Shown: piece after piece, positions 45,196 through 49,787 of the stretch | Layout: each line of letters opens with the position of its first letter | How positions within the stretch are numbered: position 1 is the first letter of the stretch | DNA from: Candidatus Thorarchaeota archaeon | GTDB lineage: Archaea > Asgardarchaeota > Thorarchaeia > Thorarchaeales > Thorarchaeaceae | DNA: 50,540 bases | Direction of reading: 5' to 3' | NCBI GenBank assembly: GCA_018238375.1 | Contig: JABCTJ010000129.1 | Location: 1 to 50,540, forward strand | The notes under the pieces: generated by a model | What the model was told of the DNA's origin: nothing | What the model saw: only the letters and a program-made list of their open reading frames with translations | Databases searched by the model: none | Made by a program: the position numbers and the translations under genes

Positions 45196-45840
45196 GTGGC
45201 AGCCGATGATGTCATCCCAATGAGGTACGAATTCTTCAGTTGGAAAGGATTCTTTGTAGGTTCAGTGAGCATCGCTGTAGCTATGGTTCTCCAGTCGATG
45301 ATTAGCTTTCCTCAGATTTGGGAGATAAGAAGCATGGGCTTCACTATCCTAATTATCGTATCTTCACTTGTTGTTGGATTTGCATCAGGCAGTGTGCTGA
45401 TATTCCTGTTCCCACCTGACCAAGACGTTATCGGTATGGCTGGACTAGGGAGTGATGATCTAACTCAACACATTGCTCTATTCTGGGTGGTTCTGGCTCT
45501 CTTGCAGCCAATGCTGTCTGGTTTCGTGTTCTTTTTTGAGTACTTTGGAACAGATCCATTCGCAATGATTTGGGTACTTGTTGGATTCGCCGCACCCAGC
45601 GCGGGCTTCGCAATAGCAATGTATGACAGAACAAATGCAATAGCAAACGACCTGAAGTTGTATTTCGCTCACAACCAGAGTCTGGACATTGTGTCACTCG
45701 ATTGGCTTCATGGACTAGGGCCTAGAACAGCGGCTTACAGAATGGGCATGCTAGAGAGTGCGGCAGAAAAAGCAGGCGGACTGAGAGTTAGAGGACATCA
45801 AATAGTTCGTATCAGTGACCCATTCCCTATCAACAACTAG
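45196..45840 (+). CDS. hypothetical integral membrane protein
   Basis: 214 aa with a GTG start, 5-6 hydrophobic helices and a soluble C-terminal ~60 aa. I recognise no family. Confidence 0.55.
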   Translation: MAADDVIPMRYEFFSWKGFFVGSVSIAVAMVLQSMISFPQIWEIRSMGFTILIIVSSLVVGFASGSVLIFLFPPDQDVIGMAGLGSDDLTQHIALFWVVLALLQPMLSGFVFFFEYFGTDPFAMIWVLVGFAAPSAGFAIAMYDRTNAIANDLKLYFAHNQSLDIVSLDWLHGLGPRTAAYRMGMLESAAEKAGGLRVRGHQIVRISDPFPINN

Positions 45841-45844
45841 GCTG

Positions 45845-46162
45845 CTAAGCAGGGTGCCTTTTTCTCATATGCGCCGCCAGTCCTTGGTCTGTCCATGCAA
45901 TCCAGTCACATCTAAGACAGCTGAGCTTATTGCTCCCTAGACCGAATCGTGGTGCGGAGCGCTCTCGAAGCTCATAAATTGTGCCGCCATAGCCCGAACT
46001 CCTTCTGGTGTGGATTTTAAATCGTTTCTTGAAGCACTCCCTGCAAATCCCGAGTGTCTTCTGTTTCTCCACTACGAAACTTTCTTCGAGCGTCTTGGCT
46101 GACCCGAATGACTCCATCATCTTCCCGCAGCTCTCGCAGAATTCCGCTATTCTAATCACCAC
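45845..46162 (-). CDS. small zinc-binding protein: N-terminal CxxC...CxxC ribbon plus C-terminal C2H2-type zinc finger
   Basis: 105 aa. CESCGK...CRECFKK is followed by CLRC-x12-H-x4-H (SCLRCDWIAWTDQGLAAHMRKRH), which matches the classical C-x2-C-x12-H-x3-5-H pattern. Confidence 0.55.
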   Translation of the reverse strand: MVIRIAEFCESCGKMMESFGSAKTLEESFVVEKQKTLGICRECFKKRFKIHTRRSSGYGGTIYELRERSAPRFGLGSNKLSCLRCDWIAWTDQGLAAHMRKRHPA

Positions 46163-46255
46163 TTGGCATGTGCACTCATATGGGCGGCGGATATGGTTGC
46201 AGCTTGACAGAGAGTGCTAGTTATATTACTTTTCACTGTGTGAATAGGATGAATC

Positions 46256-47626
46256 CTACAATCCCTTGACGTAGAGTTGTGAAGCTGTCTTGAAGACATC
46301 CTCAACTCCCTCTCCTGTCAAGCATGACGTTTCAAGGAACGCTACTGGATGAAGCCGCCCATCCTTACCAAGCTTCTTTGCCAGCTCTTCTGCAAAAATA
46401 AAAGCTTCGTCTCTGGAAATAGGTGGCTCCTCTGCGTCCTCATCGGAATCGCTTCTGAGGTCCGTCTTGTTACCCACAATGATTATCGGAGGAAGGCCCT
46501 CGATGGTAGATGATGCTTCCTTCAACCAGAATTCCAGACTCTGAAAGCTCCATCTGTCTGACGCTGAATAGACAATTATCAACGCGTCAGCTCCTTCATA
46601 GAACTCCCTTCTGGCAATATCCATCCGTACAGCCTCGTCAAACGACCAGACATTGAGCATGACCCGGTGATCGACTAGCTCGAAGAGTCTCTCGTGAATG
46701 TATTGTATAGTCTGGGGCGGTTCTGATTCCTTTTCCTCAATCATAGGCTCTAGTCCAGCCTTTTCTAGGAGGCTTCCCTTACCTACCCCATCCTCTCCAA
46801 GGATTATTGCCTTGGCCGTCACTGTAGGCGTGATTACATGCTTGGGAGTAGATACTTTCTTGGCAGCTTTTTCCTCAGGCGCTTGAGCCCATGTTATTTC
46901 TGGCTCTGCAAGTTGCTCCTCTTTGGCTTCGAGGCCCTCTGGATCAACCGGCGTTTCAGAATTGGGTGTAGAAATTACTTCTTCCGTTAGAGAGTTGAGT
47001 GGGATTACGGCTGGGGTAGTCGAGTGTGAACCTGCTGCGGCCTCAACAACTTCGCTCCCCCGTAGGCTAATGCGTATCCCCTGGGCCTTGTCCATCTTCT
47101 TGCTTTGTTTTACACTGGCGGCCATGAATGAATCACTCATGGACTCAACGACTGATAGTGCTTCTGTAATGTCCTTGAAATCATGCTTGCTCATTGTTAC
47201 TACTTCTATTTCCGGAGGTTCAATTTCAGGACTCTTGATGAATTTAGCTGCCGCTGGCTCCTCTTTCACAGTCTGTATTTCAATTGCAGGTGGTGCTTTA
47301 GGCTGAGGTTTGGGCTCCTCCTCCACCACAACTGCCCTCGTTTCCGGAACTCCTATCCGGATCATAGTATCTTTCAAGATTCCTGGAGGGAGCCTCTTGC
47401 CTAAGAATAGGAAATATTTCTGCAATTCAATTTGCATATCATTGAAGGTTTTGTCTTTCAAAGGAATCTTCTTTTTGATAATGCCTTTGTCGCGAACTTC
47501 AATGTAACTGGGAAGGAGTGTTAGCGAGATTGTTGTTCCAGGCACTATCAAGTTTCGTTGACCCTCATGTATACCGGTAATTTCCCTTTGATTGCTGAGA
47601 GATAACCTTTTCGTCGATAGAGTCAA
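46256..47626 (-). CDS. Ras/Rab-like small GTPase domain protein with a ~270-aa N-terminal extension
   Basis: 456 aa. The C-terminal domain (about 46256-46816) has a P-loop GEDGVGKGS, YEGADALIIVYS, WSFQSLEFW, G4 GNKTDL and G5 LETSCL. The N-terminal ~100-aa domain is followed by an E/P/A-rich low-complexity linker. Confidence 0.8.
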   Translation of the reverse strand: MTLSTKRLSLSNQREITGIHEGQRNLIVPGTTISLTLLPSYIEVRDKGIIKKKIPLKDKTFNDMQIELQKYFLFLGKRLPPGILKDTMIRIGVPETRAVVVEEEPKPQPKAPPAIEIQTVKEEPAAAKFIKSPEIEPPEIEVVTMSKHDFKDITEALSVVESMSDSFMAASVKQSKKMDKAQGIRISLRGSEVVEAAAGSHSTTPAVIPLNSLTEEVISTPNSETPVDPEGLEAKEEQLAEPEITWAQAPEEKAAKKVSTPKHVITPTVTAKAIILGEDGVGKGSLLEKAGLEPMIEEKESEPPQTIQYIHERLFELVDHRVMLNVWSFDEAVRMDIARREFYEGADALIIVYSASDRWSFQSLEFWLKEASSTIEGLPPIIIVGNKTDLRSDSDEDAEEPPISRDEAFIFAEELAKKLGKDGRLHPVAFLETSCLTGEGVEDVFKTASQLYVKGL

Positions 47627-47720
47627 CCATCTCTAATATACCTTGCAATAAATACCCCAATGCGGGCTGGACAGAAAGAATTATGACTGTCTTGAAGTCA
47701 GTAGGCGGCAGGTCTAGAGC

Positions 47721-48281
47721 ATGACAGACATAGATTTCCTTGAATATGTTGAAGTGATTCATGATTGGCCGGAGCAAGGCAGTGCTGTTTGTGATGTTAG
47801 TCGTTTACTTGAACATCCCAACATCTTTCATGAAGCTGTTGTTACCCTTGCGAAGCCCTTTGTTGAACTACAACCAAACAAGGTGGTAGGCATCGGACAG
47901 AGAGGAATTGCTCTTGCTAGCGCTATTGCCTATTACTTGGGCTGCGGCATAGTGCCCGCATATTCCATTAGGGATGTTCCCGAGGACTGCAGCCGAAAGA
48001 TAAAGTGGTTGCCTGCCAGTAGATTTGCAGATGCTAAGCTTGGACTGGTAGCTGAATCAATTGATCCTGGAGATAGAGTCATAATCATCGACGATTGGCT
48101 CATTAAGGGAAAAACAGTTTTTGTGGTATTGAAGACCATCAAGAATCTCAAAGCTTCGGTAGTAGGTGTTGCGTGTGTTATCAACAACCTCTCTGAAGCG
48201 AGTAGAAAGAAGCTGGGCAGACCTGAAGTGTACTCGCTCATCAAGGACCTTGAACCGCAAGCATTCAAATCCGATAAGTAG
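47721..48281 (+). CDS. apt: adenine phosphoribosyltransferase
   Basis: 186 aa. DWPEQGSAVCDVSRLLEHPNIF matches the APRT N-terminal DFPxxGIxFxDIxxLL pattern. The PRPP-binding loop is RVIIIDDWLIKGKT. Confidence 0.8.
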   Translation: MTDIDFLEYVEVIHDWPEQGSAVCDVSRLLEHPNIFHEAVVTLAKPFVELQPNKVVGIGQRGIALASAIAYYLGCGIVPAYSIRDVPEDCSRKIKWLPASRFADAKLGLVAESIDPGDRVIIIDDWLIKGKTVFVVLKTIKNLKASVVGVACVINNLSEASRKKLGRPEVYSLIKDLEPQAFKSDK

Positions 48282-48305: not shown

Positions 48306-48345
48306 GGAGCTTGAGGCTGCGATTGCCTCAGCAGCTCCTATTTTT
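48306..48345 (+). terminator. hairpin plus T-tract downstream of apt
   Basis: GGAGCT(48306-11)/AGCTCC(48333-38) and GAGGC(48313-17)/GCCTC(48325-29) form a stem with a 7-nt loop, followed by TATTTTT (48339-45). Archaeal termination typically uses oligo-T tracts. The hairpin overlaps the 3' end of the convergent pseudogene. Confidence 0.35.
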
Positions 48346-48782
48346 GCTCCATTCTGTCTGGCCGCGTAGCTCCCTTCGTAGCACCTTGCCGACCATTGTC
48401 TTAGGCAGGGTGACAACAATCTTGAAGTCTGTTGGTATCTTGTAGACTGCCATCTTTTCCCTGCCAAAGTTTCGCATCTTCTTTGAAGTGAGAGTCCGAC
48501 TTGGTTCTACTACAACGAAATCTTTGACTGTTTTGCCTCTCTTCTCGTCTGGAATGCCAATGACTGCTACTTCGTGAATCTTGGGATGCTCAAAGAGGAC
48601 TTCCTCGACATCGTTGGGCCACACCTTTACGCACTGGCGTTGATGAGGTCTTTCTTTCGGTTAACAATGTACGTCCACCCATCCTCATCCATCTTTGCTA
48701 TGTCACCAGTGATTAGCCATCCGTCAGACAGACATGAGAATGCACGCGACCAGTTTAGAAATAGAGATGCCTTTCTTTGCAG
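48328..48782 (-). pseudogene. 5'-truncated, frameshifted remnant of an AMP-dependent acyl-CoA synthetase/ligase (C-terminal ~150 aa only)
   Basis: One frame reads ...[32 protein letters not shown]-stop (stop at 48627-48629). The next frame continues [41 protein letters not shown]...YKIPTDFKIVVTLPKTMVGKVLRRELRG. These are the A8-A10 core motifs of adenylate-forming enzymes. No N-terminal AMP-binding domain exists upstream. Confidence 0.7.
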
Positions 48783-48854
48783 CTAACCCGCCAGCATTTT
48801 TCTAATTCGCCCTAGCTCGTTTGACTTCACAATGCTACAGAGCTTCGAGATTGA

Positions 48855-49787
48855 CTATTCAGGTGGAGAAACGTAAACCTCAAAGACTCCAGACCATATG
48901 TCACTACTTGATTCTGGTTTGATCAATAAATCTCCGCCGAAGTTTGCACCAACTGGTTTAGCCTTGGTCTTTTTCCAAATATCTGCGAAGATGAGCGAGT
49001 GCACTTTGTTTTGGAAATCCTCGGTGACACGTGATATAGCCACATCTAGGTGAGCCGAATCGATTCCGTATTGACTGAGATCTGCAGTTGTTCTGAACAG
49101 ACGTTCCTCGTTCACGGCGCCTATGGTCTTGTCGAATGTGTATCCAATGCCTCCAGCTAAGTAAAACACTCTCATTGGAATCCGTCTTTCTTCTTCAACC
49201 ACGACAAGTTTTCGATTACTGAGCAAGATGTATTCCGGATTAGACATGGCGAACGAGATTGAGGCCGCTTCAACAGTCACATCATCCATCTTCAGGGTTT
49301 TACTCAGGAAATAGCCTATCTCGATTACTTGCTTATCGAATCTAAAGGGTTCGAAATTATCAGTATACATCACATTTCGAGCCTTGCGCAGTATGACATC
49401 AACAATCCTTTGACATTGTTTGAGGAACTGCACCCTTTCGTCCTTTCGACTAAGTATCCTTCCTATAGATATCACAACACGTAGGAAATCGAGGTTCTTG
49501 AAGTTCGAGAGAATGGTTCTACTCAGGTATGTCTTGCTGCCAGCCTCTAGGAATCCTTCTTCTCTTGCTACTTTCTCAGGTATCGGATTCCCCATGTAGA
49601 CCTGAGTCATTGCTTTCCTGCGCTTTGCCTTGAAAAAAACGCCCACATCTAGACCACGACGGGGCAAGTCGAGAAGCTGTCTCACAAAGGGGCCATCTGG
49701 AACAATCTCCCTTGCCTGCGCTTTCTGGTACATCTGCGTATACTTTGCAAATAAATCGGCTCGCGACATCCTCCAATCAACCCGCAA
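48855..49787 (-). CDS. hypothetical protein
   Basis: 310-aa ORF with normal globular composition. I recognise no motif. Confidence 0.6.
   Translation of the reverse strand: MRVDWRMSRADLFAKYTQMYQKAQAREIVPDGPFVRQLLDLPRRGLDVGVFFKAKRRKAMTQVYMGNPIPEKVAREEGFLEAGSKTYLSRTILSNFKNLDFLRVVISIGRILSRKDERVQFLKQCQRIVDVILRKARNVMYTDNFEPFRFDKQVIEIGYFLSKTLKMDDVTVEAASISFAMSNPEYILLSNRKLVVVEEERRIPMRVFYLAGGIGYTFDKTIGAVNEERLFRTTADLSQYGIDSAHLDVAISRVTEDFQNKVHSLIFADIWKKTKAKPVGANFGGDLLIKPESSSDIWSGVFEVYVSPPE

Follow-up and report, generated by a model that had tools for sequence, protein, structure and literature searches.

Can a small-GTPase-like protein still act as a switch when most of its catalytic motifs are degenerate? 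The question is raised by a gene on the reverse strand of a 50,540-nt stretch of DNA (hereafter the window) from a Candidatus Thorarchaeota archaeon (GenBank assembly GCA_018238375.1, contig JABCTJ010000129.1, positions 1 to 50,540), which an earlier note, made from the sequence alone, had read as a Rab/Ras-like domain with altered G1 and G3 motifs behind a long N-terminal extension. Our follow-up of the gene, its homologues, its predicted structure and its neighbours suggests that the product is a non-switching pseudo-GTPase adaptor which probably still binds guanine nucleotide, a reading to which we give a probability of about 0.55.

The C-terminal ∼185 amino acids (aa) had been aligned to Rab and Ras by eye, and database searches bear this out. 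Pfam Ras (PF00071) matched residues 272–450 of the open reading frame (ORF) as first called (hereafter the long ORF) with 65 bits against a cut-off of 21.6 (E 8e-18), Roc also matched, and the best sequence matches in the PDB were Rab14 (E 7e-14), Rab23, Rab9, Rab7 and Rab4, the solved Thorarchaeota Rab (Thor-Rab) being matched as well. Sequence identity to Thor-Rab and to Rabs is 19–30%. When the predicted structure was compared with the PDB by Foldseek, the Thor-Rab entries 7EZD, 7EZE and 7EZB came out at the top (7EZD with a template modelling (TM) score by target of 0.82; probability to Rabs 1.00), and the top 50 consisted mostly of Rab structures (Sec4p, Rab2A, Rab14, Rab4B, Rab1 and others) together with Rho-family chains (RhoA, Rho1p, Rac1, Cdc42, RhoG), with no Arf or Rag listed among them. 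By these sequence and structure matches, rather than by a formal phylogeny including eukaryotic sequences, the G domain is closest to Rabs within the Ras superfamily. In the full-length AlphaFold2 model, built on an alignment of 71 sequences, the G domain (residues 240–431 of the revised protein, see below) is confident, with a predicted local distance difference test (pLDDT) score >90, and its phosphate-binding loop (P-loop) sits between strand 243–252 and helix 258–264 as in Ras. The protein ends in YVKGL without a nearby Cys and thus lacks the Rab prenylation motif. When shorter proteins were searched by word index for relatives of the G domain that stand alone, fragments of this family were all that came up.

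The nucleotide-binding motifs were then compared over an alignment of 121 family members that share ∼45–50% identity (motif residues are numbered in the long ORF). HMMER alignment with Rab14 pairs GEDGVGKGSLL with GDMGVGKSCLL, and VWSFDEAVR with IWDTAGQER, with no insertion, placing Gly284 at the Mg-binding Ser position of GK[ST]; in this copy Asp57, Gly60 and Gln61 (Ras numbering) have become Ser, Glu and Ala. The degenerate P-loop and the missing DxxG and catalytic Gln that had been noticed in this copy proved to be properties of the whole family. The position equivalent to Ser17 is Arg in 39 members, Glu in 34, Gly in 19, Lys in 19, Gln in 4, Ala in 3, Asn in 2 and Ser in 1 only, the residue right after it is Ser or Thr in 117 of the 121, and DxxG is present in none. 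At the switch-I Thr position Val (65), Thr (21) and Ser (7) occur, and the Thr retained by this copy (T306) is not conserved in the family. The sequence that replaces G3 is invariant, with W327, S328, F329, D330 and A332 (WSFDxA) found in 121/121, and the Gly60 equivalent is Leu or Glu within a predicted helix. In the model WSFDEAV forms the end of strand β3 and a short ordered helix (304–309 of the revised protein) with pLDDT >90, not a flexible loop. The P-loop residues G277, E278, V281, G282 and K283 are likewise invariant (121/121). The base-specificity motifs are retained, as the earlier note had held: N386 and D389 of G4 are found in all 121 sequences, K387 in 120 and the G5 residue Ser434 in 118 of 119. 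Moreover, Arg321 and Arg339 are invariant, and the guanine-stacking aromatic of Ras and Rab aligns with aliphatic residues. The genome has nine further small GTPases, and all carry canonical GxxxxGK[ST] and DxxG, eight of them with DxxGQ.

Measured against the Ras superfamily, therefore, the Mg-binding Ser/Thr of G1, the G2 Thr and the G3 DxxG are absent, and G4 and G5 are present. We use the pseudoGTPase concept and its class i definition as given in PMC12490416 (see also PMC5593906), and the family combines what that concept asks for, namely a G-domain fold, the loss of catalytic motifs and conservation in the lost state. Judged from the alignment, the ancestor of the family already had the degenerate state, which has been under purifying selection, and the element that replaces G3 shows the degree of conservation of a catalytic motif. 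In the Ras family, Ser17 and Thr35 contact Mg2+ directly and Asp57 does so via water, γ-phosphate sensing by the Thr35 and Gly60 amides drives the switch, and Gln61 places the attacking water. On the aligned sequences the equivalents of all five residues are lost family-wide, and the start of switch II is predicted to be ordered, therefore a non-switching, non-hydrolysing G domain is the most economical interpretation. Such a domain would have no canonical GTP/GDP switch or hydrolysis cycle and would serve as a constitutive binding module in which the invariant, apparently rigid WSFDxAV element replaces the lost catalytic residues. Guanine nucleotide would likely still be bound, with weak or no dependence on Mg. 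Continued binding is favoured because the P-loop Lys, NKxD and the G5 Ser are invariant, and if the protein is a pseudoGTPase we rate an occupied pocket at slightly better than even.

An N-terminal domain of ∼100 aa and a disordered linker of ∼170 aa had been proposed upstream of the G domain. The N-terminal domain is supported as a folded unit by a confident model (residues 1–70 with pLDDT ∼90 in the full-length protein; pLDDT 92 and predicted TM score 0.79 when modelled alone), and its size is smaller, about 72 aa. The linker is disordered and of nearly the proposed length (∼168 aa), and it contains one conserved helix, in which the D, I, A, L, E, S, D and F columns are invariant in the family. 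A profile of the N-terminal domain searched against 1.84 billion representative proteins found 40 proteins, nearly all of this family, and the two weakest matches in multiple stretches were much longer proteins. Pfam and NCBIfam matched nothing in residues 1–265 of the long ORF. The predicted fold gave a best E value of 0.29 by Foldseek against the PDB and a best Z of 5.2 by VIA-align wide, scattered over ribosomal, pleckstrin homology (PH)-like and designed proteins; in the ESM Atlas TM scores were ≤0.65 on short spans, and the Atlas feature search yielded no usable match. A longin or roadblock identity, which had been raised for this domain, finds no Pfam match, and neither is listed among the Foldseek, VIA or Atlas matches. 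As modelled, the domain thus has no recognisable fold, although missing matches are no proof of a new fold.

The median net charges in the family are +6 for the N-terminal domain, −22 for the linker and −13 for the G domain, and a basic head, an acidic tether and an acidic G domain together suggest a tethered adaptor. In such an adaptor the acidic disordered tether (∼170 aa with its one conserved helix) would join the basic head to the G domain, the head would attach to an acidic surface (nucleic acid, the head groups of membrane lipids or acidic regions of the protein itself), and a partner would bind to the degenerate Rab surface (WSFDxAV and SDRWSFxSxxFW). The first candidate for this partner is the 105-aa zinc-finger protein encoded next door. 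Three parts make up this protein: a CxxC...CxxC ribbon, a core with invariant SGYGGTIYEL...PRFGLGS, and a C2H2 finger. Thorarchaeota is the source name of almost all of its 90 homologues, and its database matches are sub-threshold only (C2H2 in most members; FYVE-like with E 0.003–0.008). In ∼64 of 69 genomes, representing 16 genera, its gene lies directly downstream on the same contig and strand, with exceptions at contig ends, and ten genomes, one of them 97% complete, lack both genes. From this pattern, functional coupling of the pseudo-GTPase and the zinc-finger protein is plausible. A predicted complex of the full-length protein with the zinc-finger protein gave an ipSAE interface score of 0.00 in two runs without controls, which counts neither for nor against binding. 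The most specific version of the proposal, that a locked pseudo-Rab tethered by a basic membrane- or nucleic-acid-binding domain recruits the C2H2/Zn-ribbon protein via its WSFDxAV surface, is a long shot. If true, zinc-finger recruitment would parallel, in archaea, the way in which Rabs recognise C2H2 effectors, and this would be the first pseudoGTPase system from an archaeon.

The family belongs to Thorarchaeota, which agrees with the Asgard setting proposed before. In a survey of 400 genomes of the phylum (Asgard archaea), the N-terminal domain was found in 73 of the 85 genomes of the window's taxonomic family and in the single genome (1/1) of a sister family in the same order, and in none of the 314 genomes from 31 other families; it is thus confined to one Asgard order (74/86 genomes there). 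The homologues come almost all from sources named Thorarchaeota and are labelled 'hypothetical protein', 'GTP-binding protein', 'Rab family GTPase' or 'ADP-ribosylation factor-like protein'. Besides the main group (group A), some genera carry a second group of paralogues (group B; loci L016-L020, L025 and L027-L034 of other Thorarchaeota genomes) of 413–454 aa with the same architecture, sometimes in tandem (pairs in G356 and G358). In group B Val or Ile takes the place of the P-loop Lys (GVNS, GINS, GVKS), G3 reads AWTF[PEN]K, NKxD and ETS are kept, and there is a conserved C-terminal tail, NERPSMPA..H. We found no group B member in the genome that the window comes from, which has one N-domain match only. 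The orthologue of the sister family (L024 in G311) has 590 aa, a P-loop GEDDVGMSS without Lys, IWPLNEA at G3, NKID kept and a linker packed with ETKVEAP(A/T) repeats, many of them in tandem array. When a tree was calculated from the G domains by maximum likelihood, a single clade (100/100) united groups A and B with the sister-family form, parted by a long branch from the canonical paralogues of the genome, with group B on a further long branch. Loss of the P-loop Lys in group B and in the sister-family form, read from the alignments, is what would be expected of a domain freed from catalytic constraint. Covariation of the P-loop Lys with the acidic residue 330 was considered and dropped, as no clean pattern appeared across 18 group B ORFs. 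A motif related to the linker helix occurs also in group B and in short proteins with the N-terminal domain only. Standalone proteins of 172–182 aa (L021, L022, L026) have the N-terminal domain, the linker helix and the linear motifs F.FH.EN.P and DFDWEEAP, with no G domain.

The same paralogues bear on whether nucleotide is bound at all. A nucleotide-free scaffold, that is, a class i pseudoGTPase with an empty or self-occupied pocket (for example by pairing of Asp330 with Lys283), structural NKxD and ETS motifs and a purely protein-binding surface, seems unlikely to us, though several features fit it. All three Mg ligands are missing, the guanine-stacking aromatic has given way to aliphatic residues, and since group B and the sister-family orthologue keep NKxD and ETS without the P-loop Lys, a competent phosphate site is not needed for these motifs to persist. 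Position 330 presumably corresponds to Ras Ala59, next to the Mg site in Ras–Sos structures, which we also count in favour of the scaffold. However, class i pseudoGTPases of the AAGAB type have lost or displaced G4 and G5 (PMC12490416), whereas in this family N, K, D and the G5 Ser stay invariant over 121 sequences at ∼45% identity and the GxGK of the group A P-loop is intact.

We are equally doubtful that the protein is a working GTPase or switch with unconventional chemistry, in which Ser328 and Asp330 would bind the metal instead of Asp57 and the P-loop Ser, and catalysis would come from an intrinsic Arg (Arg321 or Arg339), from dimerisation or from the zinc-finger protein in trans. WSFD.A together with the two Arg residues is as invariant as true catalytic motifs, the Ser/Thr directly after the lost Ser position is widely kept, and Rap with RapGAP is a precedent of a small GTPase that lacks Gln61 and uses partner residues; MglA, a small GTPase without Gln61 that uses an intrinsic Arg (mentioned in PMC10933270), is another. 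On the other side, the γ-phosphate-sensing amide of Gly60 is replaced by that of Leu or Glu in a predicted helix, and the paralogues go on losing the P-loop Lys, which is unexpected in a lineage of active enzymes. To our knowledge, no small GTPase works without all of Ser17, Thr35, Asp57 and Gly60.

Several points nevertheless weigh against the non-switching, nucleotide-binding adaptor. Motif loss is no proof of activity loss because catalytic residues can migrate or act in trans, and the invariant Ser328, Asp330, Arg321 and Arg339 could, by their conservation, form an unconventional site. Kept NKxD and ETS are weaker proof of nucleotide binding than the earlier note assumed, because group B keeps both without the P-loop Lys; they may be kept for structural reasons, and nucleotide binding is then not assured. 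The partner is also less secure than the adjacency suggests, since the whole gene block is syntenic across the taxonomic family and adjacency is thus a weaker sign of a functional link. In the sister-family genome (96% complete) the GTPase-like gene is present and the zinc-finger gene was not detected, and a TATA-like element, TAATATAA, in the 93-nt gap (46163–46255), ∼60 nt upstream of the zinc-finger start, suggests that this gene may have its own promoter.

The remaining explanation, that errors of sequencing or assembly are at work or that the gene is an ordinary Rab in decay, is practically negligible and is refuted by the homologue set, the family-wide motif states and independent contigs: the frame is intact over 431 aa, the motifs are common to 121 homologues from many assemblies, realignment yields neither a canonical GK[ST] nor DxxG, homologues both close and distant are degenerate at these motifs too (the earlier note had named canonical motifs on realignment or in close homologues as signs of an artefact), contigs of four public metagenome runs (four studies; marine sediment and cold seep) cover the gene with substitutions only and zero insertions or deletions, and the structure model is confident. 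No supporting evidence was found. A gene in the window that has truly decayed is the neighbouring acyl-CoA synthetase.

Translation confirmed the first-called ORF and every motif quoted from it, and the start of the gene required revision. About 120 homologues of 420–450 aa span 94–95% of the query, with their N-termini at MIVPGTT, which is residue 26 of the long ORF, and GAGGG is found 9 nt upstream of the TTG at this position; the gene was therefore taken to begin there (Table 1). Relatives annotated with longer N-termini carry extra residues that are unrelated in sequence in the family alignment, and from this comparison the first 25 codons of the long ORF are probably not translated. A scan for bacterial-type promoters and terminators was uninformative, the host being an archaeon. 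The divergent intergenic region of 170 nt (47552–47720), common to the GTPase-like gene and the phosphoribosyltransferase gene, has the A/T-rich, TATA-like elements TATATTA / TTTATT upstream of the GTPase-like gene.

Table 1. Positions in the window of the pseudo-GTPase gene, its parts and its neighbours (residues of protein parts counted in the revised protein)
Feature	Position	Strand	Basis
ORF as first called	46256..47626	(-)	open-reading-frame list
Revised gene, 431-aa three-part protein	46256..47551	(-)	TTG start 47551, stop TAG 46256-46258
25 in-frame codons upstream, probably untranslated 5′ leader	47552..47626	(-)	no protein-level conservation
Basic domain at the N-terminus, residues 1-72, three strands followed by two helices, invariant E-x-R-D-K-G-x-x-K-K-K hairpin	47336..47551	(-)	AlphaFold2, invariant columns
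Linker 1, disordered, E/P-rich, residues 73-119	47195..47335	(-)	pLDDT <50, composition, family-variable length
Conserved helix island in linker, residues 120-146, DF.DI..AL..VES.SDSFMA	47114..47194	(-)	helix 128-143, pLDDT 70-79
Linker 2, disordered, acidic, residues 147-240	46832..47113	(-)	pLDDT <50 at 146-162 and 178-235
Rab-fold G domain, residues 241-431, without C-terminal Cys	46259..46831	(-)	Pfam Ras, PDB sequence, Foldseek, pLDDT >90
P-loop GEDGVGKGS, with Gly in place of the Mg-binding Ser/Thr; Gly and Lys retained	46772..46798	(-)	HMMER alignment, translation
WSFDEAV in place of WDTAGQE (G3/switch II)	46628..46648	(-)	HMMER alignment, model, translation
G4 NKTD	46460..46471	(-)	family alignment, translation
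G5 ETSC	46322..46333	(-)	family alignment, translation
105-aa zinc-finger protein gene, co-directional, 93 nt downstream, candidate partner	45845..46162	(-)	conserved adjacency
214-aa membrane protein gene, convergent, beyond zinc-finger gene	45196-45840	(+)	without Pfam match
Phosphoribosyltransferase gene, divergent from pseudo-GTPase gene	47721-48281		
Remnant of AMP-binding (acyl-CoA synthetase-like) gene, C-terminal ∼98 aa only	48328-48854		
310-aa protein gene	48855-49787	(-)	without Pfam match

Further out, the 214-aa membrane protein and the 310-aa protein show 57–58% identity and synteny in distant Thorarchaeota genomes. In three relatives (L011, L012 and L014), genes for a complete 557-aa AMP-binding protein, a GGR-like flavoprotein and a ∼527-aa protein stand between the phosphoribosyltransferase gene and a 305-aa gene, and from this comparison the window genome appears to have lost ∼4–5 kb at the acyl-CoA synthetase-like locus.

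Of all 'eukaryotic signature' proteins, small GTPases have expanded most in Asgard archaea, and those studied are canonical only (Thor-Rab, Arf-like). Papers on them describe canonical Thor-Rab, Arf-like and Rag-like proteins, longin and roadblock fusions and unknown-domain fusions (PMC10933270; bioRxiv 10.1101/2020.10.19.343400), and our literature search on Asgard small GTPases and pseudoGTPases found neither this family nor an archaeal pseudoGTPase of such architecture described. PseudoGTPases, so far described mainly in eukaryotes, thus appear also to have arisen, and to have been kept under strong selection, in an Asgard lineage. The architecture is distinctive: a basic and apparently new head is joined by a disordered tether to a degenerate Rab domain, and a dedicated zinc-finger gene lies alongside. 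Moreover, group A, group B and the sister-family form make a natural series of increasing degeneracy which could separate the nucleotide-binding from the scaffold needs of the G motifs, and the family is an accessible system in which to ask what the small-GTPase-like proteins of Asgard archaea bind.

Among known systems, Rab5 with EEA1 or Rabenosyn-5 is a familiar case of a Rab that pairs with a C2H2 zinc-finger effector. The Rab-fold protein encoded here beside a C2H2 and Zn-ribbon protein with weak, sub-threshold FYVE-like matches resembles that arrangement, a likeness that we take as a lead only. Rnd, RhoH and RGK proteins are eukaryotic proteins of pseudoGTPase type and unrelated origin in which Mg coordination is kept, whereas it is lost in this family. 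Like the multidomain small GTPases of Asgard archaea ('?'-domain fusions in PMC10933270, Fig. 1f; bioRxiv 10.1101/2020.10.19.343400), the family carries extra fused domains and is lineage-restricted; unlike the longin- and roadblock-fused Rag/Arf-like GTPases, its fused domain matched neither in the searches made here, and its G domain is Rab-like and degenerate. With Thor-Rab (7EZB/7EZD/7EZE; PMC10933270) and with Rab14, Rab2, Rab4 and Rab23, its best sequence and structure matches, it shares the fold, NKxD and ETS(A/C), and with Thor-Rab also the absence of a prenylatable C-terminal Cys (PMC10933270). However, Thor-Rab and Rabs have canonical GK[ST], the switch-I Thr and DTAGQ and hydrolyse GTP, whereas the family lacks those motifs and carries a 240-aa N-terminal extension. 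The pG1 and pG2 domains of p190RhoGAP (PMC5593906) and the psGD of AAGAB (PMC12490416) resemble it in their G-domain fold, in conserved motif loss and in forming a binding module within a larger protein; these are eukaryotic, of unrelated origin and have lost G4 and G5 too, whereas in the Thorarchaeota family G4 and G5 are invariant.

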